DNA of 64,000 nucleotides from Synergistales bacterium (GTDB taxonomy: Bacteria > Synergistota > Synergistia > Synergistales > JAFGMB01), in the NCBI GenBank assembly GCA_963666205.1, contig OY762654.1:1776752-1840751 (forward strand). The letters are read 5' to 3'. A program made the translations under genes and the position numbers. Shown piece after piece: positions 7,428-64,000 of this stretch. The notes below the pieces were generated by a model. The model saw only the letters and a list, made by a program, of their open reading frames with translations. It searched no databases and was not told where the DNA came from. Positions within the stretch are counted from its first letter, which is position 1; each line of letters opens with the position of its first letter.

Positions 7428-7537
7428 AAACTCTGGAGTTAGTTTTTCTTTCTGGACATAACTGTAAGGGTGGATAATTAGAACTTCGTCGAATATTGTC
7501 TTTTCTTTATGTCATGATAGATTTCTAAAAAGAGGTC

Positions 7538-8224
7538 TTAATTCTGATTATTTTTAAATCTTCTGATCGCATCTAGAGTTCTTTCCATGGCTTTTAACAG
7601 GTGTTCCTCAACTTTCTGTTGAGCAAGATCAGGATCATGTTTCTTAAAGGCCTCTATTATCTCAAGATGTTCTTTTGTTATAGTTACTATCACTTCTTCA
7701 ATCCTGAGATATCCGGTTGCTTTTTCTGTAGTAAAATACATAATCCTTTCGGATTTCTGCTTCAGGTTTTCAAGGGTTTCTTTTATGAGTTTATTCTCGG
7801 TATATTTAAAGAGCAATTCATCAAGCTGTTTTTCTGTTTTGATGTAAAGGGTCATGTTACCAGGATCTTTAAGGAGGTTCAGAAATTCTGTCTTCAGCTT
7901 TTCCAGATCGGAATTTTCGGAAAGATGGGCGACAGACCTGGCGGCACTGCTTTCCAGGAGAATGCGCAACCCCCATAGATCCCTTACACTGCTTTCATCA
8001 ACTTGAGTTACGATAGCACTTTTATTTGGGGAAATCTCAACAAGGCCCTGGCTTTCAAGTTTGAGCAGGGCTTCCCTTACCGGAGTAGTACTGACATCAA
8101 ATTCATTCGCAAGGCGATCGATCTGAAGGGTTTCTCCCGGTATGTATTTATGACTGATTATCATCTGTTTTATGGAATGAAAAATCTGGTCAGACAATTT
8201 TATTTTGGTAATTTTATTACCCAT
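7538..8224 (-). CDS. GntR family transcriptional regulator (FadR/FCD subfamily)
   Basis: 228 aa. N-terminal winged helix (LANEFDVSTTPVREALLKLESQGLVE) and an all-helical C-terminal FCD-like domain. Confidence 0.85.
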   Translation of the reverse strand: MGNKITKIKLSDQIFHSIKQMIISHKYIPGETLQIDRLANEFDVSTTPVREALLKLESQGLVEISPNKSAIVTQVDESSVRDLWGLRILLESSAARSVAHLSENSDLEKLKTEFLNLLKDPGNMTLYIKTEKQLDELLFKYTENKLIKETLENLKQKSERIMYFTTEKATGYLRIEEVIVTITKEHLEIIEAFKKHDPDLAQQKVEEHLLKAMERTLDAIRRFKNNQN

Positions 8225-8677
8225 ATGAGCACGCCACTTTCATTCGGAAAGATGTAAAAAATTATTTATATTATGGATCCTTAAGGGTTTCTTATTAGTG
8301 GGATTGAATAGAAATATATGTGACATCATATATACTATATTTTAATAATTCAAAAAAATCAAGAACATTATTTACCTTCATTGCTGCAGTCTTTTTCTCT
8401 GAAAAACAGCCATACTCCCTGTTTCCAACCATCGGTTCTTATATGATTCGATATAGTCCTGAATCTGTATGGTCCTGATCTGTGGGACATTTGACGACAA
8501 AATTATCTATAAGAATAAAAACAGATCATTGAAGGTAAGTTTACACTTTTCTGATAAACAAGTTATACTACTATAACTTCAGTAATAATTCAATAATATG
8601 CTCAGGACAGATATTCTTCTGCTTTTAAATGGTTTTTTAATAAAATTAAATCTGCTGATAAAGAAGGTGTATCTTTC

Positions 8678-9055
8678 GTGTCAGAAAAAAATACCTATGT
8701 TATCTGGACAAGGGAAACATTGCTGGAAATGGCTGAAAAGGCGACCCATGGCAGTAACCCCGAGGGTGGAGTGTCCATCTCTTTTCTTCGTCAGGAGAAC
8801 GAGTGTGCTGTAAACGTTGTAGAACTGAAGAAGGGGATCCCTTCTCATAGGCATGTGAGACATGATGAGATAATCCAGATACTTGAAGGAGAGGGAAAAG
8901 CCGTAATTGATGGAGAGGAAAAACAACTCAAACCTGGAGATGTACTGTTCTGCCCGAGAAATATCTCTCATTCCCTCCATTTTCCAGTCAAACTTCTTTC
9001 CATATACACACCCTCCTTTGATCCACGGAATCCGGACAGGATCTTCGATAATTAA
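8678..9055 (+). CDS. cupin domain protein
   Basis: 125 aa, GTG start. Cupin motifs HRHVRHDEIIQILEGEG and PGDVLFCPRNISHSL. Confidence 0.7.
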   Translation: MSEKNTYVIWTRETLLEMAEKATHGSNPEGGVSISFLRQENECAVNVVELKKGIPSHRHVRHDEIIQILEGEGKAVIDGEEKQLKPGDVLFCPRNISHSLHFPVKLLSIYTPSFDPRNPDRIFDN

Positions 9056-9068
9056 AAGAGAATCATTT

Positions 9069-9101
9069 AATGGGCTGTCCTGAATGGGATAGCCCATTTT
9101 T
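9069..9101 (+). terminator. rho-independent terminator after the cupin gene
   Basis: AATGGGCT (9069-9076) pairs with AGCCCATT (9091-9098), followed by a T-run. Confidence 0.5.
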
Positions 9102-9272
9102 ACAGACAGGTTTCGGGAGTGATCTGTAAAAGGGGCCAAGCGTAATAATTTGCAGGACCATAGTGTTTGAAGGGATATGGATAAAATGAAAAAAACCCGC
9201 AAGATAAAAATATACATGGAAAGACCCTACTCTTCCGTTTGCTGAAGTAATTTCTGCTATGGAGAGGAAGAG

Positions 9273-9527
9273 ATGAAATCCTTTCCCATGAAGGACAGCC
9301 GTGTGCTGGTCGGTAATATTCTGGGGAAAATAAGGGAAAAATATGGATCCAGGGTGAGCATAAACATATATGATCCAAGGTGCTACCTCTGGTTTTTCGA
9401 TCTTGTAAGGTTCAACGTAAGGGCTACTGAAGCAACATGGATCATGGATGGGAAACTTCTGGCCAGGGGCGTTCCATCCTGGGAGGATCTTGAAATATCC
9501 ATTGATGAAAGGCTTGAGAAAGAATGA
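9273..9527 (+). CDS. small hypothetical protein, possibly a thioredoxin-fold protein lacking CxxC
   Basis: 84 aa with a GAGGAAGAG RBS. The C-terminal stretch TWIMDGKLLARGVPSWEDLEISIDERL resembles the end of small Thioredoxin_3-type proteins (..ALVIDGKVV.SGRVPS.EEI..). No redox cysteine pair is present. The similarity was judged by eye only. Confidence 0.4.
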   Translation: MKSFPMKDSRVLVGNILGKIREKYGSRVSINIYDPRCYLWFFDLVRFNVRATEATWIMDGKLLARGVPSWEDLEISIDERLEKE

Positions 9528-9606
9528 GCTGTGGTAAAATAATCCTGCCTTAATCGAGTTTTCCATCAGGTTGGTTTCATCCTTTTTCTTTGAAGGTGGG
9601 TTTGTT

Positions 9607-12360
9607 ATGACCGGAGACGAAAGAAACAGAATTTCCTCAGAACGGAGTCCCTCCGTGGAAAAACCCGTCCTTGAAAGTGAAAAGGTGCCCTGCTCTTCTG
9701 AAGAGAAAGGTAGCGGCCTCCGTCGGGAGATGCATATACCCCTGGGATTAAGCAGTCTGATATCCTTCCTCATAACCGATATTCAGGGAGAGGAAGCTTC
9801 TATAATGTCAACAAGCAGCGGAGCAGAACGACTTTTCGGTTATGGTCCGTCTGAAATGGCGGGTCAGCTCCTTTCGTCCATTATGGTTCCAGACAGGGTG
9901 TGCCGCCTTCCTGTTATTTTCGGCAAACTATCGGCCACTAAAGAGGGATACAGTTCAGAGACAGTCCTTGCAAAGCGATCGGGAGAACTTTTTCCTGCGC
10001 ATCTTAAGGTCTATCCTGTGCATGATAAAGATGGTAATGTGGTACAGGCCCTTTTTTTTATCACCGACCTTTCCTCCCGTAAAAAACTTGAAAAGGAACT
10101 CTCCAGGAGCGAGGAAAAATTCCGTATTCTCATTGAGAATTCTCTTGATATCATAACCATCCTTGATCACGATGGAACAGTGACCTATCACAGCCCTTCT
10201 GTCAGGGATGTCCTCGGTTATGAAAAGGGTGAACTGCAAAGAGCCAATATTTTTGACAACATACATCCTGAAGATTTCCCTGCGACTATGTCCGCCCTCG
10301 CTGAAGTATCTAAAGATCCAGGTATTCCAAAGGTCCTTGAACATCGTTTCAGAGATAGTTCCGGGGCCTGGAAGATATTTGAGAGCCGGGGTAAGGCTCT
10401 TATATCCGGTTCTGGCCTTGAAGGGATAATTGTAAATTCCAGGGATATTTCCGACAGAAAGGAAGCAGAGAGGGAACTTTCCCGCCGTCTTCATTTTGAG
10501 GAGACCCTTTCGGAAATATCAACAAGATTTGTCCTGACACAATATCTGGATGAAGCGATCAACACTTCCCTTGAACAGCTCGGTCTTTTCAGTTGCGCAA
10601 GTCGTGCCTATATTTTTACAATTGACAGGAAATCCGGAACAATGAGCAATACCCATGAATGGTGTTACAAGGATATAGAGCCCCAGATAGATCATCTCCA
10701 GTTCCTTCCTCTCAATAGCTTTCCATGGTGGATGAAAAGACTTGAAGAAGATGGAGAGATAGTTATTCAGGATGTATCCAGCCTTCCTCCGGAGGCATCT
10801 GCCGAGAAGACTATCCTCCAGGAACAGGGGATAAGATCCATCCTCGTACTTCCCTTTTATTGTGCCAATTCGATCAGGGGTTATGTGGGTTTCGACAATG
10901 TGATCTCCACCTGGGCCTGGGAAAAGAAGGACATAAGACTTCTCAAGGTCTATGCACATATCCTTGGCCAGGCTTTTGAAAAAAATGAAACTTTCCGTTC
11001 CTATCAGTCCAGCCTCCAGTTCAACCTCAGTCTTCTCAACAGTTCTCCAAACCCGATAATGGTTCTTGATGCACAAGGTTCAATAACCTATGTAAATCCT
11101 TCCTTTGGCAGGGTATCAGGCTATACCTTAAAGGAAGTCAGGGGCATGAGAGCCCCTTATCCCTGGTGGCCTGAAGATGACGTGGAGGATTGCCTCCGGG
11201 AACATGAAGCCCTCTTAAGAGGTAATAGTACAGCAGGAGAGAAACGGTTTATATCCAGCAAGGGAGAGACTTTCCGGGTTTACATAAATAGCTCTCTTAT
11301 AAATGGAGAAGAAGGGGAGAACCATTTCCTGGTTAACTGGCTCGATATCACAGAGCGGTATCGGGCAGAGAGGGCTCACAGGGCTTCAGAGGAAAAATAC
11401 AGATCTCTCGTGGAAAACCTGAATGAAATAATTTATTCACTCAACAGGGAAGGACATATCACTTTTATAAGCCCTGTTGTAAAAGCATTGCTTGGATATG
11501 AAACATCGGAGATGGAGGGATGCGCCTTTACTTCCTTTGTTCACGAAGATGACAGTTACGCTGTGGAGGCAAGCCTGAAGGACCGGTGGGCTGGCATTCC
11601 GGAAAAGTATGAGCTCCGCATGATCAGCAATGAAGGTAAAGTACATCACGTGCTGGTTTCGTCAAGACCCCAGTTTGACGGAAATAACGTAGTTGGTGTT
11701 ATCGGCTCCCTCAGCGATATCACAGCCCAGAGGGAAACGGAGATCAAACTGGAGGCAAGTTACAGAAAGCTTGATGAATTGATGGATGGAGCCGCATCTT
11801 CCATAGTGTCTCTTCTGGAGATAAGAGATCCCTATTCAGCCGGACATCAGAGACGGGTATCCATACTCGCTACGGCAATTGCAAAGGAAATGAAGCTTAA
11901 GGAAGAACAGGTGGAAAATGTAAGAATTTCCAGCCTTGTCCACGATATAGGAAAGATCCATATACCAGCTGAGATACTCAGTAAGCCATCAAAGCTGAGA
12001 AAAACGGAATTCGAACTTCTCAAGGCTCATCCCCGCTCGGGTTCTGAGGTCATACATAAATTCGCTTTCCCTGAGATCATCGGAGAAATAGTGCTCCAGC
12101 ATCATGAGAGATTCGACGGTTCGGGTTATCCGGATGGTCTGAAGGGACAGGAAATACTGCTTGAGGCCAGGATCCTTGCCGTGGCAGATGTTGTGGAAGC
12201 TATGGTTTCCCATAGACCCTATCGTCCGGCCCACAGTTTTGATGAAGCCCTGGAGGAGATCTCTTCAAAGAGCGGCATTCATTTCGACCCTGAAGTTGTA
12301 GTTGCCTGTATCAGTGTCTTTTCAAAAAAAGGGTTCTTCGCAGGGTCTTCCAGTATCTGA
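9607..12360 (+). CDS. multidomain sensor, PAS-PAS-GAF-PAS-PAS-HD-GYP (putative c-di-GMP phosphodiesterase)
   Basis: ORF track 9571..12360. The ATG at 9607 lies 7 nt after AAGGTGG. Four PAS-like segments, for example ENSLDIITILDHDGTVTYHSP and NLNEIIYSLNREGHITFISP. A GAF-like segment, then C-terminal HDIGKIHIP and HHERFDGSGYPDGL (HD-GYP). Confidence 0.85.
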   Translation: MTGDERNRISSERSPSVEKPVLESEKVPCSSEEKGSGLRREMHIPLGLSSLISFLITDIQGEEASIMSTSSGAERLFGYGPSEMAGQLLSSIMVPDRVCRLPVIFGKLSATKEGYSSETVLAKRSGELFPAHLKVYPVHDKDGNVVQALFFITDLSSRKKLEKELSRSEEKFRILIENSLDIITILDHDGTVTYHSPSVRDVLGYEKGELQRANIFDNIHPEDFPATMSALAEVSKDPGIPKVLEHRFRDSSGAWKIFESRGKALISGSGLEGIIVNSRDISDRKEAERELSRRLHFEETLSEISTRFVLTQYLDEAINTSLEQLGLFSCASRAYIFTIDRKSGTMSNTHEWCYKDIEPQIDHLQFLPLNSFPWWMKRLEEDGEIVIQDVSSLPPEASAEKTILQEQGIRSILVLPFYCANSIRGYVGFDNVISTWAWEKKDIRLLKVYAHILGQAFEKNETFRSYQSSLQFNLSLLNSSPNPIMVLDAQGSITYVNPSFGRVSGYTLKEVRGMRAPYPWWPEDDVEDCLREHEALLRGNSTAGEKRFISSKGETFRVYINSSLINGEEGENHFLVNWLDITERYRAERAHRASEEKYRSLVENLNEIIYSLNREGHITFISPVVKALLGYETSEMEGCAFTSFVHEDDSYAVEASLKDRWAGIPEKYELRMISNEGKVHHVLVSSRPQFDGNNVVGVIGSLSDITAQRETEIKLEASYRKLDELMDGAASSIVSLLEIRDPYSAGHQRRVSILATAIAKEMKLKEEQVENVRISSLVHDIGKIHIPAEILSKPSKLRKTEFELLKAHPRSGSEVIHKFAFPEIIGEIVLQHHERFDGSGYPDGLKGQEILLEARILAVADVVEAMVSHRPYRPAHSFDEALEEISSKSGIHFDPEVVVACISVFSKKGFFAGSSSI

Positions 12361-12381
12361 GGAACATATCTCATGGGGTCA

Positions 12382-12921
12382 TCACCGCCATCGACCTCTA
12401 CCTCCCGGACCCCGGCCATGACCGCCCTTTCTTCCAGGACCGAAACCTGAACATGGAGGTCCTGCGATGTCATTTTCGGGGAAATTTCTATGGCATTCAT
12501 CGCAGACGGCCGCTATTTCCAGTGTCTGGGGGAGGAAGTGAAATGCCTCTTCCTCAACCCATTTCCTGACCATAGCCTCTTTGCCTGTTTCATCCTCCAT
12601 GTGTATTACCTTGCCGCAGATCCTGCAGTATACGTGAAAGTGCATCTTTTGACCTGGAAGTTCAAAACGGTAAAACCCTTCCTCCAAATTAACCAGGTTC
12701 AGGAGCCCAAGCCTGGATAGAAGGTTTACAGTACGGTAGATGGTGGCGATCCCGATAGTCGGGTCCTCTGCCTGCGCCAATTCCCTGAGATCGTTAACGC
12801 TGCAATGTTTTCCCGAGTTTTCGATGAGGGTCCTTATGATGATTTCCCGCTGACTGGTAAGGCGGAAGCCCCTTTTTTTCAGTTCTTCCCTATATTGGTC
12901 GCTCAGCTTTCCAGGTAACAT
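12382..12921 (-). CDS. fur: Fur family transcriptional repressor with an unusual C-terminal Gly/Arg-rich extension
   Basis: 179 aa. Fur-type winged helix (LTSQREIIIRTLIENSGKHCSVNDL..IATIYRTVNLL) and CRIC...CDEC structural zinc motifs. About 30 extra residues end in AGPPCSGFGPGRKGGHGRGPGGRGRWR. GGAGGA RBS. A near-consensus Fur box lies in its own promoter region. Confidence 0.85.
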   Translation of the reverse strand: MLPGKLSDQYREELKKRGFRLTSQREIIIRTLIENSGKHCSVNDLRELAQAEDPTIGIATIYRTVNLLSRLGLLNLVNLEEGFYRFELPGQKMHFHVYCRICGKVIHMEDETGKEAMVRKWVEEEAFHFLPQTLEIAAVCDECHRNFPENDIAGPPCSGFGPGRKGGHGRGPGGRGRWR

Positions 12922-12970
12922 CTTGTTCCTCCAGAAGGTTATGTTCTCTTTATGAATTTTACATTGACCC

Positions 12971-13000
12971 TTGACAATATAACATATACAGGTCTAGAAT
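12971..13000 (+). promoter_or_regulatory. sigma70-type promoter of the DUF5320 / MinD-Fer4 operon
   Basis: TTGACA (12971-12976), an 18-nt spacer, then TAGAAT (12995-13000). It overlaps the divergent fur promoter face to face. Confidence 0.55.
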
Positions 13001-13005
13001 GCTAA
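12976..13005 (-). promoter_or_regulatory. candidate promoter of the fur-family gene
   Basis: Minus strand reads TTAGCA (13005-13000), an 18-nt spacer, then TGT-TATATT (extended -10; TATATT at 12981-12976). The -35 element directly abuts the Fur box at 13006-13020. Confidence 0.45.
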
Positions 13006-13020
13006 TGATAATCATTATCA
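13006..13020. promoter_or_regulatory. Fur box (operator site 1)
   Basis: TGATAATCATTATCA is a perfect 7-1-7 palindrome. The 19-mer at 13001-13019, GCTAATGATAATCATTATC, matches the classical Fur consensus GATAATGATAATCATTATC at 18 of 19 positions. The box starts 6 nt after the -10 hexamer. Confidence 0.75.
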
Positions 13021-13234
13021 CTAATTGAATCTCCTGATATGCGATACATGAGTAATGATCCTGTATTTCCGACTCTGGTTTTGCTGACACTATTTTTGTA
13101 AGTATTGTACTGGAGTTTCCAGAGAAACGGGTTTCTTCTGGCCATTCTGAATTTACTTATCCTGATCATGTATTGCTATAAGAGGACAATACATCTTTCC
13201 AAAGGGAGAGATGAACTTCAAGGAGGCGATACAA

Positions 13235-13510
13235 ATGCCGAGATTTAACGGAAGAGGGCCAAGAGGTATGGGTCCCGGAACAGGATGGGGCCTTGGTCCC
13301 TGTGGAGCAGGCAGAGCCTGGGGCCGTGGAGGCGGATATGGGTATGGCTGGAGAGTGCCTATGGCAGACAGTGGTTATTATCCTCCATATGCTGCGCCTG
13401 TACAGCCTGCACCCCAGGATGAAAAGGTCTTTCTTCAGGATCAGCTGGACTATCTTGAATCTGAAGTCAGGCGGATACGGGAAAGAATGGATGATCTCGA
13501 TAAGGCTTAA
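13235..13510 (+). CDS. DUF5320-like protein (Gly/Arg-rich N-terminus plus C-terminal coiled coil)
   Basis: ORF track 13211..13510. The ATG at 13235 lies 8 nt after AAGGAGG. Starts MPRFNGRGPRGMGPGTGWGLGPCGAGRAWGRGGGYGYGWR and ends with the helical LQDQLDYLESEVRRIRERMDDLDKA. This is the DUF5320 architecture as I recall it. Confidence 0.7.
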   Translation: MPRFNGRGPRGMGPGTGWGLGPCGAGRAWGRGGGYGYGWRVPMADSGYYPPYAAPVQPAPQDEKVFLQDQLDYLESEVRRIRERMDDLDKA

Positions 13511-13548
13511 CCCTGATCTTTTCTTCTTACCCCATGTTAACTTTCTTT

Positions 13549-13584
13549 AAGAGAGGGGAGTTTTCTCTCCTCTCTTGATTTTGT
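13549..13584 (+). terminator. hairpin / partial terminator between DUF5320 and the first ATPase gene
   Basis: AAGAGAGGGGAG (13549-13560), loop TTTT, CTCTCCTCTCTT (13565-13576). This gives 12 bp including one G-U pair. T-rich GATTTTGTCTGTTT follows. Confidence 0.5.
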
Positions 13585-13629
13585 CTGTTTCTCCGATACA
13601 ATCAGGGAATGCCAATTGCCAACTGAACA

Positions 13630-13644
13630 GAATAATCAATATCA
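13630..13644. promoter_or_regulatory. Fur-box-like operator site 2
   Basis: GAATAATCAATATCA is 13/15 identical to site 3 (15888-15902). It lies 44 nt upstream of the first ATPase gene. A possible weak promoter is TTGCCA (13616-13621) with TATCAA (13640-13645). Confidence 0.4.
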
Positions 13645-13687
13645 ATAAACCATTATTTTAGATGGAACAAGAAAATCAACGGAGGAC

Positions 13688-14542
13688 GTGATCTCGGAAA
13701 TGTTTCGAATAGCAGTTGCAAGCGGCAAGGGAGGTACCGGAAAAACGTGTGTTGCCTCATCACTTGCATTGACGGCAGGTCAGGCTGTTGCCGTTGATGT
13801 GGATGTGGAAGAACCCAACCTTGCTATTCTTATGGGAACAGAAATGAGACATCATCTTGATGTTACAGTACCTCTTCCCGTAATAAATGAAGATAAATGT
13901 ACAAAATGTGGTAAATGTGCCGAGGCCTGCCGTTTTGGAGCCCTGGCCATTTTTCCTGACAAATATCCTATCCTTAACAGTTCTCTCTGTAATGGTTGCG
14001 GTACATGTTCTATTGTCTGTCCATATTCTGCCATAACTGAAACGAAAAGAGTAGTTGGAGAATTGAATTACGGGGAAGAAGGATCTATCAGGATACTTGA
14101 AGGGCGTCTTAATGTAGGTGTCTACAATGCCATACCTATCATCGAGAAGACTCTTAATGAAGCTGAAAAATGGGACACTACCCATGTGATAGACTGTTCT
14201 CCCGGCACATCCTGTCCCATGGTGGCAGCGGTGGGGCGGGCCGATTATGTGGTTTTAGTGACAGAACCGACTCCCTTTGGCCTGGCGGATCTTGCTCTTG
14301 CCCTTACGGTGGTCAGGGATCTTGGCATACCGGCAGGAGTAGTGGTCAACAGGGCAGATCTTTCCGGAGGGGATCTGGGTCCTCTATGTGACAAGTTCGG
14401 AGTGGATGTTATTGCCAGTCTGCCCTTTTCAAGACAGGTCGCGAAAGCCTATGCCAGTGGTATTTCCCCAATCAGGGTCGATGCAAACTGGCGGGAGGCT
14501 ATGAAAAAAGTATTAAACAGGGCAGAGGAGGCACTTCAATGA
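13688..14542 (+). CDS. MinD/ParA-type P-loop ATPase with inserted 2x[4Fe-4S] ferredoxin domain
   Basis: 284 aa. Deviant Walker A ASGKGGTGKT, then CTKCGKCAEACRFGAL and CNGCGTCSIVCPYSAI cluster motifs. GTG at 13688 or ATG at 13700 are possible starts. Confidence 0.85.
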   Translation: MISEMFRIAVASGKGGTGKTCVASSLALTAGQAVAVDVDVEEPNLAILMGTEMRHHLDVTVPLPVINEDKCTKCGKCAEACRFGALAIFPDKYPILNSSLCNGCGTCSIVCPYSAITETKRVVGELNYGEEGSIRILEGRLNVGVYNAIPIIEKTLNEAEKWDTTHVIDCSPGTSCPMVAAVGRADYVVLVTEPTPFGLADLALALTVVRDLGIPAGVVVNRADLSGGDLGPLCDKFGVDVIASLPFSRQVAKAYASGISPIRVDANWREAMKKVLNRAEEALQ

Positions 14543-27867: not shown

Positions 27868-29166
27868 ATGTTTACAATCAGGGAATTTTTGAGATCGGAA
27901 GTGAAGCCTGCATTGGGATGTACTGAGCCCGGTGCGGTGGCACTGGGCGTAGCGAGGGCCGTAGAGGAACTTGGAGGAGCCCCCGTTAAAGAGATCGAGG
28001 TAGTGGTAAGCGACAGCATATACAAGAACGGCATGTACGTAGGTATTCCAGGTACAGGAGGCCTCAAGGGCAACGACATAGCAGCAGCCATGGCAGCCCT
28101 TCAGGGAAAGTCGGAATACGGCCTTGAAGTTCTCAAGGACTGCGATGCTGATACTGTGAAAAAGTCCCAGGCCATGGTGGATTCAGGGAAGGTGGTCATA
28201 ATCCCCGACCTTGACCGCCACGGAGTATATGTGGAATCCAGGGTGAGCAGTGAAAATGACACAGCAGTGACGGTCATAGAGAGCACCCACACCAATATAA
28301 CGAAGGTTACCCTCAACGACAGGGTCATATTTGAAACAGAAAAAGGGACAGAGGACAAGAACGGCAGTAAGACCCTATCCATCCCCGAGCAGGTGGAAAG
28401 GATGAACTACTCGGAGCTGGTCAGTATGGCTGAGGACATGGACGCAGAGGACGTGGACTACGTCATGAACGGAGTGGACATGAACCTCACCATAGCCGAA
28501 TACGGATTCACTCACAACGTAGGCATCAACCTCGGATCCACCATAAAGAAACTGGCAGGTGAGCATTACGACTCCGATGACCTGAGCAGCAGGATCAAGG
28601 CAGTGGCGGCGGCAGCCTCCGACGCACGAATGGACGGAGCACCCTATCCCGTTATGAGCAGTGCCGGAAGCGGCAACCACGGGATCACCGCCATCCTTCC
28701 CGTATACGTAGCAGGAGATCATTATGGCAAGAGCAGGGAAGAGATAGCGAAAGCCATAGCCTTCAGCCACCTCACCACATCCTTCATAAAGAGCAGGATG
28801 GGCAGGCTCAGCCCCGTATGCGGATGCAGCGTAGCTGCAGGGGCAGGAGCGGCATCGGGGATCGTCTATCTTCTGAGTAAAGACATAGCAAAGGCAGAGA
28901 AGGCAGTGGAGATGGTGCTTGGCAACCTGGTGGGGATGGTATGTGACGGAGCGAAGGAGACCTGTGCCCTGAAGGTAGGGACGGGAGCCCTTGAATCCTA
29001 CCATGCGGCCATGATCGTGATGGGAGGCAATGGCCTGAACGGACCCCAGGGAGTGGTGGACGATACCATAGAGAAGACCGTGGCAAACGCTGCTTCCATC
29101 AATGTGGAAGGAATGACGGAAGTCGACAGTATTATCATTGATTTCATAAAACAAAGGTTCGCATAA
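27868..29166 (+). CDS. UPF0597 / YhaM(CyuA)-type L-cysteine desulfidase family protein (serine dehydratase alpha-like)
   Basis: 432 aa. N-terminal EVKPALGCTEPGAVALG and later SSAGSGNHG and CGCSVAAGAG motifs typical of the family. Confidence 0.8.
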   Translation: MFTIREFLRSEVKPALGCTEPGAVALGVARAVEELGGAPVKEIEVVVSDSIYKNGMYVGIPGTGGLKGNDIAAAMAALQGKSEYGLEVLKDCDADTVKKSQAMVDSGKVVIIPDLDRHGVYVESRVSSENDTAVTVIESTHTNITKVTLNDRVIFETEKGTEDKNGSKTLSIPEQVERMNYSELVSMAEDMDAEDVDYVMNGVDMNLTIAEYGFTHNVGINLGSTIKKLAGEHYDSDDLSSRIKAVAAAASDARMDGAPYPVMSSAGSGNHGITAILPVYVAGDHYGKSREEIAKAIAFSHLTTSFIKSRMGRLSPVCGCSVAAGAGAASGIVYLLSKDIAKAEKAVEMVLGNLVGMVCDGAKETCALKVGTGALESYHAAMIVMGGNGLNGPQGVVDDTIEKTVANAASINVEGMTEVDSIIIDFIKQRFA

Positions 29167-57198: not shown

Positions 57199-58386
57199 TT
57201 ATTCGTTTCCCCATCTTCGAAGGATAATAATAACGTTAAAAAAAGGAAAGATCAGTACAATAGAAAAGGCATAAAGAAGCCCCTGGCGGTCTACTACCAT
57301 CCCCACAAGGGTCATCATCAACCCGCTGAGACCGAAGGCGACTCCCATTAGAAGAGATGTAGCTGTACTTTTTGATCCGGGAGCAAGTTCCTGTGCCCTG
57401 GCAACTAAAAGAGGAGAAGATGAAACCAGTAGTGCGTTTCCAAGCATGAACAGAATAAAGGGAATCCAGCCTTCGTAGAACAGCTCAGGGAAAAGCAGCA
57501 GGGGTGACATACCCTGGGCGAAGAGTAATACCCTTCTTTTGCCGTAGATAAGGGCGGCCTTACCGGCCAGAAGAGGAGACATAACCTTTGCCAGCTGAAC
57601 GAAAAAAAGTGTTAAACCTACCTTTTCTATACCTCCGCCTCTGAGCACGACCAGGAGGGGCAGAAGGAACTTTATTCCGTGATTGGTTATGTCCCTGAGA
57701 AATGTAACGGTCCATACGGGCCAGATATCATGAAGGATATCCCTCACTATTTTCAGGAAGTTTTTGGATTTTCCAGGTTTATCGATCTTGCCTTTGATAG
57801 AGGGGATCAGTATCCAGAACAGAATACCAGTTGCGGTTACAGGTATTATCGGGAAAAGATTCAAAGGCAGATCTCTGAAGTGCTTGAAAAGAAAAGCTGC
57901 ATATAGGGGGCTTAGGGAGCTTCCGAGTATTCCCACCATGCTGAAAAAGGCCAGTTGCAGGGGTATCTTCTCAATATTTCCAATATATCCTACAGACCCG
58001 TGTCCCTGGGGATGAAAAACAGCGCTTCCCAGCCCCCAGATGGAGACAAGAAGCAGGGCTGTCCCATAGGATGGAGAAGATGGGATAAGCGAAGCACCAA
58101 GGGCCGTCAGGACAGGACCCCAGACTATCATAAAAGGGCGGGAACTTGCATCCGAAATAAAGCCCAATAATGGTTGAAGGAACATATTGAACAGCCCTGG
58201 CAGGGATGTAAGGATACCCGCTTGAGTTACTGAAATACCAAGGTTTTCGATCAGAAAGGGTAGAAAGGTCTGCAGAAAAGCTGTATGCAGGTCATTCAGA
58301 AAATGCTGAAGGTAAATTAATGAAAGTTTTCTTTGAGTGCCAGGGATAACGTTTTGAGAACTGATCAATATGGTCTCCTTGTTCAT
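57199..58386 (-). CDS. MFS transporter
   Basis: 395 aa with about 12 TM helices. It is the last gene of the tightly packed minus-strand operon. Confidence 0.8.
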   Translation of the reverse strand: MNKETILISSQNVIPGTQRKLSLIYLQHFLNDLHTAFLQTFLPFLIENLGISVTQAGILTSLPGLFNMFLQPLLGFISDASSRPFMIVWGPVLTALGASLIPSSPSYGTALLLVSIWGLGSAVFHPQGHGSVGYIGNIEKIPLQLAFFSMVGILGSSLSPLYAAFLFKHFRDLPLNLFPIIPVTATGILFWILIPSIKGKIDKPGKSKNFLKIVRDILHDIWPVWTVTFLRDITNHGIKFLLPLLVVLRGGGIEKVGLTLFFVQLAKVMSPLLAGKAALIYGKRRVLLFAQGMSPLLLFPELFYEGWIPFILFMLGNALLVSSSPLLVARAQELAPGSKSTATSLLMGVAFGLSGLMMTLVGMVVDRQGLLYAFSIVLIFPFFNVIIILRRWGNE

Positions 58387-58410
58387 AGGTTTTCAGAAGG
58401 TGTTGTGAAA

Positions 58411-59595
58411 TTAACTAATGCAGTCCTTTTTAATGGCTTTACTGATCCTTGTGAGACCTTCTGTTAACGTCGACCTGGGAGTTGCAATGGTCAACCTGGC
58501 AAATCCCTCTGTTACCTTGCCGAATTCTGCTCCTCTATTCATTCCTACCCTTGCTTCATGGACCAGAAAGTCCTGCAGTTTTTCTGAAGACAATCCCAGT
58601 TTTCTGAAATCTATAAGAGGGACATATGTGCCTTCAGGTTTTATGAGGTTTATCCCGGGCATATTCTTTTTCAGAAATTTTTCGGTAAAATTCAGGTTTT
58701 CTTCCAGATATTCAATCAATTCTTTCAGCCACTCTTCACCGGAACCGTAGGCAGCAGCAATTGCTTCCGAACCAAAGACGGTGACCCCTGCAAGGTGCAT
58801 GCCCGAGATAAGGCTGTTGTATCGTTCCCGGAGATGTTCATCAGGGATAACTACTATGGCCGACCGAAATCCGGCAAGGTTGAAAGTCTTGCTGGGTGAA
58901 AAACTTGTTATCGTTCTATTTCCGATATCCTCTGAAAGACTTGCTATTGGGATATGTTTATTCCCTCCATATATGATATCGGAATGAACCTCATCCGATA
59001 CAATGATGATGTTCTTTTCAAGGCAGATTTCAGCCAGTTCTGTCAGTTCTTTTTCCCGCCAGACCCTGCCTGAAGGATTATGGGGATTACAGAGGAATAA
59101 CATCCTTACCCCGGAATCCAGTTTATCTCTCAGGTCATCGAGGTCCATGGTAAAACGTCCATCATTGAGAACCAAGGTATTATCAACGATCCTTCGGCCA
59201 TTCTCTTCAATGATATGGTAGAAAGGAGAGTAGATCGGAGACTGTATCATGATCCTGTCTCCCGGTCTTGTAAGAGCAAGCATGGAAAAGACAAGGGAAG
59301 GTGTTACTCCTGGAGAGTGGCAGATCCATTCTTTCTCTATCTTCCAGCCATGGCGGCGCATCATCCAGGAGATTATTACATCATAAAAATCGTCCGGCCT
59401 GTTAGGATACCCGAAAATACCATGATCAAGCCTTTTCTGGAGCCGTTCTATCACCTCAGGGGGAGCCTGAAAATCCATATCCGCCTTCCACAGGGCCAGA
59501 ATATCAGGATCACCGAACACTTTTCCGAGATTATCCCATTTCTGACAGGCCGTATTCTTTCTGTTTATAATCCTGTCAAAGTTGTATTTCCTCAT
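58411..59595 (-). CDS. MalY/PatB family PLP-dependent C-S lyase (cystathionine beta-lyase-like)
   Basis: 394 aa. YNFDRIINRKNTACQKWD N-terminus, CNPHNPSG and SPSKTFNLAGFR (PLP lysine). Confidence 0.85.
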   Translation of the reverse strand: MRKYNFDRIINRKNTACQKWDNLGKVFGDPDILALWKADMDFQAPPEVIERLQKRLDHGIFGYPNRPDDFYDVIISWMMRRHGWKIEKEWICHSPGVTPSLVFSMLALTRPGDRIMIQSPIYSPFYHIIEENGRRIVDNTLVLNDGRFTMDLDDLRDKLDSGVRMLFLCNPHNPSGRVWREKELTELAEICLEKNIIIVSDEVHSDIIYGGNKHIPIASLSEDIGNRTITSFSPSKTFNLAGFRSAIVVIPDEHLRERYNSLISGMHLAGVTVFGSEAIAAAYGSGEEWLKELIEYLEENLNFTEKFLKKNMPGINLIKPEGTYVPLIDFRKLGLSSEKLQDFLVHEARVGMNRGAEFGKVTEGFARLTIATPRSTLTEGLTRISKAIKKDCIS

Positions 59596-59634
59596 AAACG
59601 GTGTCCCCCTTTCACAGTAATATCAATTTCTATA

Positions 59635-61011
59635 TCAATTTAAGAATTCAGTATCGCTGACACACTGTTTCCTGGAAAGAGCTATGACCGCATCAACCTG
59701 TTCAGCTGATTTGCCTATATGCTTGGTGTAGTCCATAACTGAATCAAGTTCTTCTTTTGTTAAATTTGCGCCTATTTCGGGATCTTCCAGAAGGAGTTCT
59801 CTGAATGTCTTATTGCCGGTGTTGGCCGCAAGTATGGCATCCCGGATCAGGTGATGGGCAGTCTGCTTTCCCATTTTTTCCCCGAGATGGAACATTAGGG
59901 CTTCTGAAAAGAGCATTCCGTGGAGCATGTCCAGATTCTCGCTTATCCTGGGTTCATTAATATCGAGACCTTCAACGACAACAGTACATGCCTGCAGGGC
60001 TTTTGCCATCATGATGCTGCTTTCGGGGATGGAATGCCAGTCAAGTCTCCAGCTCCGGGTGTCCCTCTCGTGTTCAGCTATCATTCCCTGAAGGCCAAGG
60101 CTGGCATTATTCATTATCACCCTGGTCATGGCTACTACGAATTCAGATGTTTCGGCATTCCTCTTATGGGGCATGGTGCTGCTGCCGACATAGTGTTTGC
60201 CCAGAGGTTCCTGAAGTTCAAGGATCTCTGTTCTGCTCAACTGGTAGATCTCATTCGCAATTCTCCCTATAGTTCCGGCAATAATGCCGAGGAGGGACTG
60301 GTATTCTGCAAAGTTATCCCTGGAACTTCCCCATCCGGTAACGGGGACTTCAAGGGCTAATCTCTCCATGACACCCTCTATAATTGGGTAGGCCTTTTCT
60401 CCCAGACCGGCCATGGTTCCTGTTCCGCCATGAAGCATTCCCACGAACAGCCTTTGACTGGTATCCTTCATCCGTTCAATATCCCGTCTGACCTCTGCGG
60501 CCCAGCCGGCGAACTTGAGTCCGAGTGTTATGGGCAGACCCTGCTGGTTATGGGTCCTGCCTGCCATGGGGAAGGCCTTGTATCGATCTGCCAGTTCCAG
60601 AATTGCCTTTTCAAGTCTGCAGAGATCTCTGAAAATGATACGGAAGGCATCCTTTATCTCAAGGACCATTCCTGTATCCTCTATATCCTGGGTAGTTGGT
60701 CCGTAATGAATATATTCACCTAGGGAACCATCGCATATCTTCTGTACTGCACGAAGAAGGGGGACCAGGGAGTGTCCTGTCTGGGCGAGACCTTCCTTCA
60801 CAAAATCCAGGTCCAGAAGTTCCACTTTGGCTTTTTTTGCGATCTCATCAGCTGCTTCTGAAGGAATTATTCCAAGCCCTGCCTGGACTTCTGCCAGTAC
60901 GATCTCGATATCCAGCCATCTCTGGTATCTTTTCCTGTCGGAAAAGACATTGCGCATCTCCTCCGTGCCCCATCCATTTTTATAAAATTCCGAATCAATA
61001 ATATGTGCCAT
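59635..61011 (-). CDS. adenylosuccinate lyase / 3-carboxymuconate cycloisomerase-like member of the aspartase-fumarase superfamily
   Basis: 458 aa. GPTTQDIEDT, MAGRTHNQQGLP and the superfamily signature GSSTMPHKRNA. Confidence 0.85.
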   Translation of the reverse strand: MAHIIDSEFYKNGWGTEEMRNVFSDRKRYQRWLDIEIVLAEVQAGLGIIPSEAADEIAKKAKVELLDLDFVKEGLAQTGHSLVPLLRAVQKICDGSLGEYIHYGPTTQDIEDTGMVLEIKDAFRIIFRDLCRLEKAILELADRYKAFPMAGRTHNQQGLPITLGLKFAGWAAEVRRDIERMKDTSQRLFVGMLHGGTGTMAGLGEKAYPIIEGVMERLALEVPVTGWGSSRDNFAEYQSLLGIIAGTIGRIANEIYQLSRTEILELQEPLGKHYVGSSTMPHKRNAETSEFVVAMTRVIMNNASLGLQGMIAEHERDTRSWRLDWHSIPESSIMMAKALQACTVVVEGLDINEPRISENLDMLHGMLFSEALMFHLGEKMGKQTAHHLIRDAILAANTGNKTFRELLLEDPEIGANLTKEELDSVMDYTKHIGKSAEQVDAVIALSRKQCVSDTEFLN

Positions 61012-61044
61012 TTTTACAACTCCTCCATGTACTTGTTTTTCTTT

Positions 61045-62409
61045 TTACAGGATGCCTGAAACTTCAGGCATGTATAGTCCTTTGTAGGTTCTCATCTGAT
61101 CCAGGGTGTAGATCCGGTTCAGGATCCTTTCCCTTTCTTCTTTTTCAAGGATTTGAGAGGTGAGTTCCGTAAACTTGTCAGTCATGGAAGTCTTGTCCAT
61201 TGGGTTCTCGGGGTCACCTTTCCTGAATCGGTTCTCAGCGCTCAGGACAGTTCCATCCTTGAGAGTTACCGAGATACCACAGGGTCTGCAGGCGGGGAAG
61301 AGTCTGTCCAGCTCCGGATCGAATATGAGTTCTATTTTTGACATAAGATCCCTGATAACAGGGTCCTGGAGATCCTTCTCCGAAAGATTGGTAAAGGTTA
61401 TATCCTTTTTTGTAATAAGGGCGGCCATGCAGAAGGGATTGCTGAATTTAGCCTCTTCAAAGGAAGAGGGGTCTGTAATTCCAGCTACATCGATGGCTTT
61501 CTGGTAAACCCTTGCTTCGATCTTTTCTATTTCTTCGGGTATCAGGTCATGGGTTTCCATGATCTTTTTCACTGCATCTATCATGCTATGGGTCTGGCCG
61601 CAGGTGGGATATCCCTTGAAATTAACTTCATCGACCTTGAAATGCGAACCCAGTCTGTCTGCCAGGTATAAAAGGTCATAACTTGGAGATACTGACCTGC
61701 AGAATCCTTTTTCGCCTTCAAAAATATGTTCCGGCCCCTCGATTCCCTGGGAAGCAAGTTCAGCGGCGATAATACCGTTAAAAACCGCTTTGCCCGGATG
61801 GAAGGCTTTTGCCATAACTGCACCATCAAGAAGAAACTGCCAGAGACCGGCAGCCTGGGTCCCGGTATGTCCAAGGGTCCAGACGATCTCCTCTTCGCTC
61901 AGTTTCAGCATTTTTGCAGCAGCAGCAGCAGCGCCGAAAGTTCCGGCTGTCGCCGTAGTGTGCCATATGGAGTAATGGTCCTTGCCAAGACATTCTCCTA
62001 CCCTGATGGCCAGATCATACGCGCAGACAGCGGCCTCGATCATCTCTTTTCCGGAGGAAGAGAGTTTTTCCGCATAGGCAAAAACCACAGGAAGGACAAC
62101 TGTTCCAATGTGCATTATGGACATCCTGTGACCGTCATCAACTTCGGTTATATGGCCCAGGCATGCATTCGCAAAGGCTGCCCAGGGAAGGGTGGTCTTT
62201 TTCCCGGAACCGATGATGGTGCTGTATCCTTCCCCGCCCATTCTGGAAGCAAAATCCAGGTATGATGTGGAAAGGTCATTCGTATATGAATTGTAGACTG
62301 CAGCAAGCCAGTCGGTAAAACAGTGCTCTGTTTTAAGTATTGTATTTTCAGGTAGTTTATCTAATTCCAGGCTTGAAATATATCTTGCAAACTGTCGGGA
62401 ATAACTCAT
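61045..62409 (-). CDS. MmgE/PrpD family protein (2-methylcitrate dehydratase-like fold, activity unassigned)
   Basis: 454 aa. Family-typical N-terminus (FARYISSLELDKLPENTI) and central TFGAAAAAAKMLKL segment. Confidence 0.8.
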   Translation of the reverse strand: MSYSRQFARYISSLELDKLPENTILKTEHCFTDWLAAVYNSYTNDLSTSYLDFASRMGGEGYSTIIGSGKKTTLPWAAFANACLGHITEVDDGHRMSIMHIGTVVLPVVFAYAEKLSSSGKEMIEAAVCAYDLAIRVGECLGKDHYSIWHTTATAGTFGAAAAAAKMLKLSEEEIVWTLGHTGTQAAGLWQFLLDGAVMAKAFHPGKAVFNGIIAAELASQGIEGPEHIFEGEKGFCRSVSPSYDLLYLADRLGSHFKVDEVNFKGYPTCGQTHSMIDAVKKIMETHDLIPEEIEKIEARVYQKAIDVAGITDPSSFEEAKFSNPFCMAALITKKDITFTNLSEKDLQDPVIRDLMSKIELIFDPELDRLFPACRPCGISVTLKDGTVLSAENRFRKGDPENPMDKTSMTDKFTELTSQILEKEERERILNRIYTLDQMRTYKGLYMPEVSGIL

Positions 62410-62425
62410 TTTGATCTCTATCCCT

Positions 62426-63808
62426 TTAACCTGGAAAGACCATTTTTTCGGGCTTCAGGTATTTATTGAATTCTTCTTCCGTCATATAGCCAAGGGCCAT
62501 AGCAGATTCCTTCAGGGTGGAACCTTCCTTATGGGCTTTTTTGGCAATCTCTGCTGCCCTGTCATAGCCGATGTGAGGGGTCAGTGCAGTTACGAGCATG
62601 AGTGATTCATTAAGGTATTTCTCAATTCTGTTCCTGTCAGCTTCTATTCCCCTGACTGCATTTTTCTCGAAGGAAGCCATTACATCAGTGAGCAGGCGAC
62701 ATGACTGAAGGAAGTTGTAAATGATCACAGGCATGAATACATTGAGCTCGAAGTTGCCCTGGCTGGCAGCCATACCGATAGCTGCATCGTTACCCATTAC
62801 CTGGACCGAAACCATTGTTACGGCTTCGCACTGGGTGGGATTTACCTTTCCAGGCATGATGGAACTGCCCGGTTCGTTGGCTGGTATGGTTATCTCCCCA
62901 AGTCCGCAGCGGGGTCCGGAGGCAAGCCAGCGGACATCGTTAGCGATCTTCATGAGGTCAGCAGCGAGTGCCTTCAGGGCTCCATGGGCAAAGACCATCT
63001 CATCCTTGCTTGTCAGGGAATGGAACTTGTTGGGAGCCGTTCGGAACTGTTTCCCAGTCAGTTCAGAAATTTCTCCGGCTACGGATGTACCGAATTCAGG
63101 ATGGGAATTCAGACCGGTTCCCACGGCTGTTCCACCAAGGGCAAGATCTTTCAGGAAATCCACACTGTTAAGGATCATTTCCCTGCTTCTCTCCAGCATC
63201 CTTACCCAGCCGCTGATCTCCTGACCAAGGGTCAGAGGGGTCGCATCCTGCAGGTGTGTCCTTCCTGTCTTTATGATGTCCGAAAATTCCAGGGACTTGT
63301 CCTGAAATGTTTTCAGGAGCCTGTCAAGAGAGGGGAGCAGTTCATCCTCAATCACCATTACAGCGGCCAGGTGCATGGCTGTTGGAAAGGTATCGTTGGA
63401 ACTCTGGGATCTGTTCACATGATCATTCGGATGGATCTGGAGATCATTTTCACATATTTCCGAAGCTCTTCTGGAAAGGACTTCGTTCATGTTCATGTTT
63501 GACTGGGTACCGCTGCCCGTCTGCCATACTGCCAGGGGGAAATTGCCATCCAGCTTTCCTTCCAGAACTTCATCAGCAGCCCTGCATATGGCATCAGCCC
63601 TTGCCTCATCGACAAGACCAAGGGACGCATTAGCTTTTGCCGCAGCTTTTTTTAGAATTGCAAAGGCCCGGATGACCTCATGAGGCATTTTTTCAATACC
63701 TATTTCGAAATTCTGCAGACTTCTCTGGGTCTGGGCTCCCCATAATTTATCCGAAGGTACCCTGATTTCTCCCATGGAATCCTTCTCAATTCTGTAATTA
63801 CCTTCCAA
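62426..63808 (-). CDS. fumC: class II fumarate hydratase
   Basis: 460 aa. TTG start 7 nt after [30 protein letters not shown]-terminus and [16 protein letters not shown] signature. Confidence 0.9.
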
Positions 63809-63835
63809 AATAAGTCCCTCCTTCAGATATTATCT

Positions 63836-64000
63836 TCAGATCCGTGCTGTACCAGTTTTTCTTGCGGCTTCCGCAACAGCTCTGGCAACGGCAGGGACAA
63901 CCCTTTCGTCAAGGGCTCCCGGAATAATATATTCGGCATTGAGTTCTTCATCAGAGACGAGTTCGGCAAGGGCCTTTGATGCAGCAAGTTTCATTTCCTC
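63836..64000 (-). CDS. NAD(P)-dependent malic enzyme, C-terminal end (gene runs off the right edge)
   Basis: Own minus-strand translation: EEMKLAASKALAELVSDEELNAEYIIPGALDERVVPAVARAVAEAARKTGTARI, then a stop at 63838-63836. This matches the typical malic enzyme C-terminus. The call rests on only 54 aa. Confidence 0.6.
   Translation of the reverse strand, partial: EEMKLAASKALAELVSDEELNAEYIIPGALDERVVPAVARAVAEAARKTGTARI

Follow-up and report, generated by a model that had tools for sequence, protein, structure and literature searches.

Introduction

Two bacterial routes for the breakdown of S-(2-succino)cysteine (2SC), the adduct of cysteine and fumarate, have been described, one through YxeK and the other through the lyase 2SL; N-acetylation is required in both and oxygen in one (PMC9706529; PMC12757645; bioRxiv 10.64898/2026.01.08.698357). 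In the literature searched, up to late 2025/early 2026, acetylation, breakdown and deacetylation are treated as the general strategy for 2SC. Here we describe an operon of another composition, found at one end of a 64,000-nucleotide stretch of the genome of a Synergistales bacterium (assembly GCA_963666205.1, contig OY762654.1, positions 1,776,752 to 1,840,751; G000:C1:1776752-1840751 in our coordinates and hereafter the window). From its sequence and gene context we put at about 50% the probability that this operon imports and ferments a tricarboxylic fumarate-thiol adduct, most likely 2SC or a close analogue.

In Enterococcus italicus and Dickeya dadantii, 2SL, a relative of adenylosuccinate lyase (ADSL), reversibly cleaves N-acetyl-2SC to fumarate and N-acetylcysteine (PMC9706529). 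The window operon encodes an ADSL-like lyase of the same subfamily, which would likewise release fumarate from an S-(2-succino) thioether, and some 2SL loci carry a YxeQ-type gene of the PrpD family whose product has the same seven catalytic residues as the PrpD-like protein of the operon. In contrast to the 2SL pathway, the window cluster lacks a GNAT acetyltransferase, an amidohydrolase and an amino-acid ATP-binding cassette (ABC) transporter, and has a tripartite tricarboxylate transporter (TTT), CyuA/PatB enzymes, a fumarase and a malic enzyme; its lyase falls in a separate clade and clusters of its type occur mainly in anaerobes. The Bacillus subtilis yxe/scm operon is also dedicated to a fumarate-cysteine adduct and, as an earlier note on this DNA had correctly stated, contains the PrpD-family gene yxeQ, which is still listed as of unknown function (PMC9706529). 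It is oxygen-dependent and uses N-acetylation, deacetylation, an ABC transporter and YxeK, whereas the window cluster has no YxeK-type enzyme.

The nearest characterised relative of the window lyase on our tree is XcbD, the 3-sulfopropionylcysteine synthase with which Xanthobacter autotrophicus Py2 makes coenzyme M and which adds the thiol of L-cysteine to sulfoacrylate, an analogue of fumarate (PMC9457059). Unlike the pathway of XcbD, the window operon is without xcbA, xcbB, xcbC and xcbE and its direction is probably degradative; since a fumarase and a malic enzyme are linked to the lyase, the acceptor is probably fumarate and not sulfoacrylate. Within the PrpD family two members are proven epimerases of 2-substituted succinates (PMC12290011). 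The iminodisuccinate (IDS) epimerase (2HP0/2HP3) of Agrobacterium tumefaciens BY6, which acts with the IDS C-N lyase, resembles the present case in that an epimerase feeds a stereospecific, fumarate-releasing lyase, though it is a distant relative and IDS is N-linked and tetracarboxylic, while the context in the window points to a cysteine adduct. The (S)-(R)-methylsuccinate isomerase of Pseudomonas aeruginosa and Cupriavidus necator, compared here by its published description, shares a His/Tyr two-base site with Glu at the position of D88, but lies in an itaconate/methylsuccinate CoA-transferase cluster and has no lyase partner (PMC12290011). CyuA has been characterised from Escherichia coli and Methanococcus maripaludis (PMC12647591); the operon copy differs in lying in a lyase/PrpD/TTT operon and in having no cysteine permease as its partner. 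We found no account of a lyase/PrpD/TTT/CyuA cluster in the literature searched.

Results

The operon comprises eleven genes

The earlier note had seen six tight minus-strand genes, 16-39 nt apart, and had taken them for an operon. The open reading frame (ORF) listing of the window (gaps of 24, 39, 33, 16 and 27 nt) and the Pfam and NCBIfam assignments agree with those genes and their families, but the unit is longer. The edge of the window cuts the operon, and in the 18 kb that follow (locus L001; other L numbers denote compared loci) the same-strand series extends for five genes upstream of the malic enzyme, with gaps of 23, 98, 84, 22 and 33 nt, adding TctCBA, a CyuA-type desulfidase and a YheO-like regulator to make a whole unit of 11 genes. 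In order of transcription these are:

L001:6281-6964, minus strand: YheO-like regulator (PAS_6 and HTH_22 domains)
L001:4949-6247, minus strand: CyuA-type L-cysteine desulfidase (432 amino acids; SDH_alpha the sole domain)
L001:3922-4926, minus strand: TctC, outside the window
L001:3391-3837, minus strand: TctB, outside the window
L001:1799-3292, minus strand: TctA, the next same-strand gene upstream of the malic enzyme
63836..64000, minus strand: malic enzyme, 3' end (the whole gene, L001:588-1775, encodes 395 amino acids and runs to window-equivalent position 65023; Pfam malic and Malic_M)
62426..63808, minus strand: FumC, class II fumarate hydratase (460 amino acids; TIGR00979, 764.6 bits against a cut-off of 664.75)
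61045..62409, minus strand: MmgE/PrpD-family protein (454 amino acids; MmgE_PrpD_N 237 bits, MmgE_PrpD_C 141.9 bits)
59635..61011, minus strand: ADSL-like lyase of the fumarate-lyase superfamily (458 amino acids; Pfam Lyase_1 and ADSL_C)
58411..59595, minus strand: PatB/MalY-type C-S beta-lyase/cysteine desulfhydrase dependent on pyridoxal phosphate (PLP) (394 amino acids; TIGR04350, 477.9 bits against a cut-off of 340)
57199..58386, minus strand: major facilitator superfamily (MFS) transporter (395 amino acids; Pfam MFS_1, 80 bits), the last gene of the operon

This arrangement is no chance run of genes, because the same-strand series runs on upstream and because the core of lyase, PrpD-like protein and transporter is syntenic across several phyla. 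The YheO-like protein would be the regulator of the operon; a literature search on the ligands of YheO-family regulators gave nothing useful. In the 315-nt spacer upstream of the regulator a perfect 13-bp hairpin closes the preceding tripartite ATP-independent periplasmic (TRAP) transporter operon and is followed by an AT-rich leader, and an Rfam scan of the upstream half and the leader found no riboswitch or other RNA family. Folding of the 124-nt spacer after the MFS gene gave no convincing terminator (z-score -1.8) to mark the 3' end of the operon.

Among public runs, those of marine sediment metagenomes hold near-identical DNA. One metatranscriptome (X13) has three short contigs, which cover the MFS gene, the PatB/MFS junction and the PrpD-like gene; as DNA carry-over is possible, they are at most a weak hint of expression and do not count here as evidence of co-transcription. 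A second RNA run (X16) had no match.

The lyase lies in a clade of its own beside XcbD

The genome has four Lyase_1 genes, encoding FumC, ArgH (545 bits), the true PurB (L011:1486-2781, 529.9 bits) and the operon lyase. The last is not PurB, scoring 317.7 bits with TIGR00928 against a cut-off of 326.2, nor is it PcaB, scoring 372.3 with NF006554 (cut-off 595) and 261.6 with TIGR02426 (cut-off 355.75) in an operon without pca genes. The best NCBIfam models were NF006500 (484 bits, cut-off 626) and that of XcbD, NF052536 (481.7 bits, cut-off 600). XcbD proper was rejected on the basis of this cut-off and because there is no phosphosulfolactate synthase, XcbC or XcbE in the operon, whereas true xcb loci have these genes.

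A tree of 54 sequences was calculated under LG+C20+F+G4 and rooted on the genome's own PurB; a quick tree of 111 sequences was concordant with it. The XcbD references, from Xanthobacter, Nocardioides and Mycolicibacterium, are from annotated plasmids and each lies in a coenzyme M gene context. In Pantoea a gene labelled 'purB' is followed by a GNAT acetyltransferase, an amino-acid ABC transporter and an amidohydrolase, which is the type of locus in which 2SL was discovered (PMC9706529), and the same locus is found in Brenneria, Symbiopectobacterium, Lysinibacillus and Lederbergia. The 2SL-type clade was identified by this context and is a stand-in for the assayed proteins E0SKP1 and E6LDH5. 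Plasmid references labelled 'pcaB' are not in pca operons, leaving the tree without a verified PcaB, and the exclusion of PcaB rests on the hidden Markov model (HMM) cut-offs.

The window lyase falls in an 18-sequence clade (support 100/99), and in 15 of the 17 other members a PrpD-like gene lies within 9 kb. This clade groups at 97/90 with the XcbD clade and two clades from Desulfobulbales. The 2SL-type clade (6 sequences, 100/100) is separate, in a neighbouring group with Proteus-type and betaproteobacterial lyases, and we accordingly rejected membership of it for the window lyase, which is ~41-45% identical to the 2SL-type proteins and 38-41% to XcbD. The earlier note had named a grouping of the lyase with bona fide PurB or PcaB as something that would count against its reading; the curated cut-offs and the position of the clade, by XcbD and near the 2SL-type lyases, show no such grouping.

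Homologues share the GSSxMPHKRN loop and the histidine of the GRTHxQ motif. Across an alignment of 25 of these, the window lyase included, G276 and H282 are invariant and S277, K283, R284, N285 and H154 are present in at least 90% of the rows. Judging from the alignment, the catalytic loop and histidine are intact and the protein carries the signature of the aspartase/fumarase superfamily. The characterised relatives that flank the clade, XcbD and the 2SL-type lyases, both carry out cysteine-thiol/fumarate-type C-S chemistry, and it is proposed that the operon lyase would be an S-(2-succino) lyase that releases fumarate.

The PrpD-like protein has the residues of a two-base epimerase

The PrpD-like protein is encoded by a single copy in the genome. 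Its best solved relative is the IDS epimerase 2hp3 (129.6 bits), followed by a B. subtilis protein labelled 'IRG1' (113.9 bits) and cis-aconitate decarboxylases (~105 bits). To judge by its length only, the B. subtilis structure (PDB 7BRA) may be YxeQ.

An HMMER alignment shows that all seven residues of IDS epimerase are kept, namely H85, D88 (here Glu), H99, Y145, H150, K198 and K266. No PrpD-like protein of the clusters with a Tct transporter lacks any of the seven, and the YxeQ-type proteins of the Lysinibacillus 2SL loci have them too. The position of Y145 is taken by Gln or Lys in the Proteus-type partners and by Pro in cis-aconitate decarboxylase. The decarboxylase was used for this comparison as E. 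coli PrpD was apparently misaligned at several positions in the residue table and was left out. H85, D88, H99, H150, K198 and K266 are shared by the PrpD-family (S)-(R)-methylsuccinate isomerase, and Tyr145 is the second base specific to the two epimerases (PMC12290011). We propose that the PrpD-like protein would epimerise a 2-substituted succinate at its C2 stereocentre.

A 2-methylcitrate dehydratase was considered and rejected, the only NCBIfam match being 59.2 bits against a cut-off of 950 with no prpB or prpC adjacent. Together with the two-base epimerase residues this speaks against a place among the true 2-methylcitrate dehydratases, which the earlier note had named as something that would count against its reading.

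Cysteine-degrading enzymes recur beside the lyase

The operon CyuA is 34% identical to E. coli CyuA over 424 residues, its full length (E 2e-76), while TdcG gives 26 bits only, and its sole solved relatives are the structures of M. maripaludis CyuA. The catalytic Cys and Glu and the three cysteines of the [4Fe-4S] cluster have been defined (PMC12647591). In the operon protein the GCTE motif and all three of these cysteines are retained, matching C287, C329, C336, C23 and E25 of M. maripaludis, so that, as far as its sequence tells, the SDH_alpha protein is a CyuA-type L-cysteine desulfidase. There is a further copy of the gene:

27868..29166, plus strand: stand-alone cyuA, the second copy, inside the window

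The two proteins are identical at 429/431 residues and the DNA is 98.7% identical over exactly the coding sequence (1297 nt), with flanks that show no similarity. As the identity is confined to the ORF, it points to a recent duplication or gene conversion.

PatB directly follows the lyase, which is the position of CyuA in Aminobacterium, Pseudodesulfovibrio and Treponema, and we read the swap as a displacement between two cysteine-degrading enzymes. PatB-like genes are also found beside the cluster in L003, L016 and L022. Taking the lyase subfamily as a whole, the neighbouring sulfur-amino-acid enzymes comprise CyuA, PatB, the Cys/Met PLP enzyme of Proteus, the M20 amidohydrolases of the alphaproteobacteria and XcbE; a gene for CyuA, PatB or an M20 amidohydrolase is present in 12 of the 15 clade loci of adequate length (window included).

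The transporter and the disposal of fumarate

The operon TctC is 52-70% identical to the TctC proteins of clusters from Synergistota, Desulfovibrionales, Treponema and Kordiimonadaceae and 38-47% identical in three distant loci, but only 23-36% identical to the six other TctC proteins of the same genome. As TctC is closer to the proteins of the other clusters than to those of its own genome, the transporter travels with the enzymes. The best matches of TctC among solved structures are uncharacterised TTT binding proteins, from which no ligand can be inferred. The MFS gene after PatB is kept in a genome of the same genus (86% identity) and in one of the same family (71%), and no such gene is found in the clusters of other phyla. 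The MFS protein may serve export or a secondary uptake. Import of an adduct, the first step envisaged in the earlier note, fits the gene set, but the likely importer is the TTT system and not the MFS protein.

Searches of the genome with FumC and FumA, which cover class II and class I, brought up no fumarase besides FumC of the operon.

Two side observations concern these transporters. The 2.95-Mb genome has seven TTT (TctC/TctA) systems, three of them within ~30 kb around the window. An 11-bp GC-rich hairpin with a T-run lies at L001:3879-3904, minus strand, in the 84-nt gap between tctC and tctB.

Distribution of the cluster

Species-representative genomes were scanned and their ORFs labelled by BLASTP against the operon proteins. 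Aminobacterium, Pseudodesulfovibrio tunisiensis and Treponema have lyase homologues of 70-74% identity, and the neighbourhoods of these have in common a YheO-like regulator, RidA, TctCBA, the PrpD-like protein, the lyase and CyuA; DUF1847 is also present in two of these three clusters. The Aminobacterium cluster adds a class II FumC and a malic enzyme (76% identity to that of the window) and the Treponema cluster a class I fumarase; a fumarase is found in three of the clusters and a malic enzyme in two. More widely, orthologues with 50% identity or more to the lyase are accompanied by TctCBA and the PrpD-like protein, usually also by CyuA, YheO and RidA, and the core is found in Synergistaceae, Desulfovibrionales, Rhodospirillales, Kordiimonadaceae and Phyllobacteriaceae, with most occurrences in anaerobes. 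Variant clusters in NC10, Desulfohalobiaceae and Duodenibacillus have a peptide/opine-type ABC transporter, DcuC or an MFS protein as their transporter.

Within its own phylum, Synergistota, the lyase is confined to 5 of 151 genomes (4 of 54 genera), and this rarity fits an accessory, horizontally moved module. A genome of the same genus (L104) has TctCBA, malic enzyme (92% identity), the PrpD-like protein, lyase, PatB and MFS without FumC, and one of a sister genus in the same family (L105) has FumC, the PrpD-like protein, lyase, PatB and MFS; the gene content of the module is fluid even between close relatives. Survey of the gene order on which the earlier note had built shows that the core recurs across phyla, with PatB and MFS restricted to the window's own family.

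Several related loci were seen in the course of the survey. The alphaproteobacterial versions (L019, Rhodospirillales, and L026, Phyllobacteriaceae) have an M20 amidohydrolase that shares 34-38% identity with the YxeP-type enzyme of the Pantoea 2SL locus, and L026 also has an amino-acid ABC transporter, which suggests that these clusters are hybrids of the Tct/PrpD-like/lyase and 2SL pathway types. In Proteus, Edwardsiella and Limnobaculum there is a module in which DcuC and a Cys/Met-metabolism PLP gene are divergent from the lyase (43-45% identity), the PrpD-like gene and a LysR gene:

L066 (Proteus penneri), 7008-14433: Proteus-type module; also in L047, L051, L052, L079, L081, L085 and L087

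The conjugative IncF plasmid NZ_CP069439.1 of E. coli (L014, 6531-10780) carries fragmentary genes for a lyase (45.9% identity), an MmgE/PrpD protein and a transsulfuration PLP enzyme, and these pieces look like a decayed or misassembled copy of a related module. Desulfobulbales, including the cable bacteria Electrothrix and Electronema (L032-L076, near position 10000 of each locus), have one or two tandem lyases of the subfamily (~38% and 45% identity). These have no PrpD-like, Tct or CyuA neighbours, and the two copies form separate deep clades adjoining XcbD.

Directly upstream of the operon, L001:7280-11287 holds the TRAP operon (DctP, DctQ, DctM) and a divergent gene of the TauE/SafE sulfite-exporter family, the latter preceded by a perfect 18-bp palindrome at L001:10172-10211; no link to the operon was found.

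Discussion

A possible pathway for 2SC

In the pathway that we favour, TctCBA would take up the adduct and the PrpD-like protein, as a His/Tyr two-base epimerase, would interconvert the diastereomers at the succinyl C2. The ADSL-like lyase would then eliminate fumarate and free L-cysteine, in the reverse of the thiol addition carried out by XcbD and 2SL-type enzymes. CyuA and/or PatB would break the cysteine down to pyruvate, NH3 and H2S; in other phyla RidA would presumably handle 2-aminoacrylate. FumC and the malic enzyme would turn fumarate into malate and this into pyruvate. When a thiol adds spontaneously to fumarate a new stereocentre arises, giving two diastereomers of 2SC, and enzymes of the fumarate-lyase superfamily are stereospecific. 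Of the two diastereomers the lyase would be able to use one only. As the equilibrium favours the adduct, removal of both products would pull the reaction. The four-step logic of the earlier note, with import, epimerisation, release of fumarate together with processing of the sulfur partner, and conversion of fumarate to pyruvate, thus fits the conserved genes, although its importer has had to be revised.

If so, this might, as we tentatively suggest, be a third route for 2SC, independent of oxygen and of acetylation, in which the adduct serves as a source of carbon and energy and not just for sulfur salvage. Such a route would comprise a dedicated TTT importer, a new clade of C-S lyase acting on free 2SC and, conceivably, an S-(2-succino) epimerase of the PrpD family. 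The epimerase role could perhaps also explain YxeQ of B. subtilis, as it would make both of the spontaneous diastereomers degradable.

A number of points weigh against this assignment. TTT binding proteins are not confined to tricarboxylates, so the presence of such a system does not settle what is imported. 2SC itself is arrived at only by bracketing between characterised relatives and by gene context, and by its place on the tree the lyase appears to be no orthologue of the 2SL enzymes that have been characterised. For the PrpD-like protein, the closest relative of solved structure epimerises an N-linked adduct, IDS, and not an S-linked one. FumC is missing from the same-genus operon and the operon FumC may be the housekeeping fumarase; the operon cyuA is near-identical to the stand-alone copy and its presence in the operon is recent. 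Promoter and terminator scans gave counts no higher than those of shuffled sequence and are uninformative as to co-transcription. A query with the Pantoea GNAT protein and domain scans found no acetyltransferase in the cluster, and 2SL strongly prefers the N-acetylated substrate, with minor activity on free 2SC (PMC9706529).

Other substrates and directions

The main variant of the best reading has the steps in reversed order. PatB/CyuA would beta-eliminate 2SC to pyruvate, NH3 and mercaptosuccinate, the PrpD-like protein would racemise the latter and the lyase would eliminate H2S to give fumarate; alternatively, mercaptosuccinate itself would be imported. By family assignment, PatB/MalY enzymes typically cleave S-substituted cysteines, and in coenzyme M synthesis the thioether formed by XcbD is the substrate of XcbE, a PLP enzyme (PMC9457059). 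Mercaptosuccinate is also a small 2-substituted succinate, near to methylsuccinate, on which a proven PrpD-family isomerase acts (PMC12290011), and 2SL takes various small thiols (PMC9706529). CyuA, however, is known only as a desulfidase of free cysteine, whose thiol is bound on the cluster (PMC12647591), and no H2S-eliminating enzyme of the fumarate-lyase superfamily was found in the literature searched. Mercaptosuccinate, moreover, is a dicarboxylate and mostly a synthetic compound. We regard this order of events as unlikely.

An N-(2-succino) adduct cleaved by a C-N lyase has in its favour that IDS epimerase is the best solved relative of the PrpD-like protein, ahead of the B. subtilis protein; the gene pair would then mirror IDS epimerase and IDS lyase. 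Candidates would be an IDS-like aminopolycarboxylate, an aspartate-derived opine or N-(2-amino-2-carboxyethyl)aspartate. Most characterised lyases of the superfamily do cleave N-succino bonds (PMC9706529) and some related clusters have peptide/opine-type ABC transporters with SBP_bac_5 proteins. Yet the nearest characterised enzymes on the tree, XcbD and the 2SL-type lyases, make or break C-S bonds with cysteine or N-acetylcysteine, and the recurrent partners (CyuA, PatB and the Cys/Met PLP enzyme) degrade cysteine and are not of aspartase or transaminase type, which makes an N-linked substrate distinctly unlikely.

Operation in the synthetic direction, with malic enzyme and fumarase supplying fumarate, the lyase adding cysteine or another thiol as XcbD does, and the MFS protein exporting a thioether metabolite or cofactor precursor, appears very improbable. 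It would agree with the synthetic role of XcbD, with the MFS gene that ends the operon and with the equilibrium of 2SL, which strongly favours adduct formation (PMC9706529). On the other hand, the conserved transporter is a binding-protein-dependent uptake system, the clusters of other phyla have no MFS gene, CyuA and RidA are degradative, and no gene for phosphosulfolactate synthase, XcbC or XcbA is nearby.

Finally, metabolism of tricarboxylates imported by TctCBA, with the lyase as a Tad1-like trans-aconitate decarboxylase or a carboxymuconate cycloisomerase and the PrpD-like protein as a cis-aconitate decarboxylase or methylcitrate dehydratase, is scarcely credible: TctCBA does belong to the classic citrate-type transporter family, and among solved structures the lyase has carboxymuconate cycloisomerases (282 bits) and Tad1 (257 bits) as relatives and the PrpD-like protein has the cis-aconitate decarboxylases, but the lyase is under both PcaB cut-offs, the PrpD-like protein has the epimerase Tyr where the decarboxylase has Pro, no pca, prp or itaconate-degradation genes are adjacent, and CyuA, RidA, PatB, fumarase and malic enzyme would be left unexplained.

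Significance

Fumarate succinates thiols, a widespread kind of damage to metabolites that is also a marker of disease and a side effect of fumarate-ester drugs. The lyase subfamily and its PrpD-like partner are found in Synergistota, Desulfovibrionaceae and Treponema, with variant clusters in Duodenibacillus and Proteus. Should the operon indeed degrade 2SC or a close analogue, its lyase would represent a new clade for thiol-fumarate chemistry and its PrpD-like protein a third class of 2-substituted-succinate epimerase in the PrpD family, giving a testable function to YxeQ-type PrpD proteins, and there would be a candidate ligand for one of the many orphan TTT transporters. It would then be a horizontally shared anaerobic route, showing how anaerobes of sediment and gut recycle a stable adduct.

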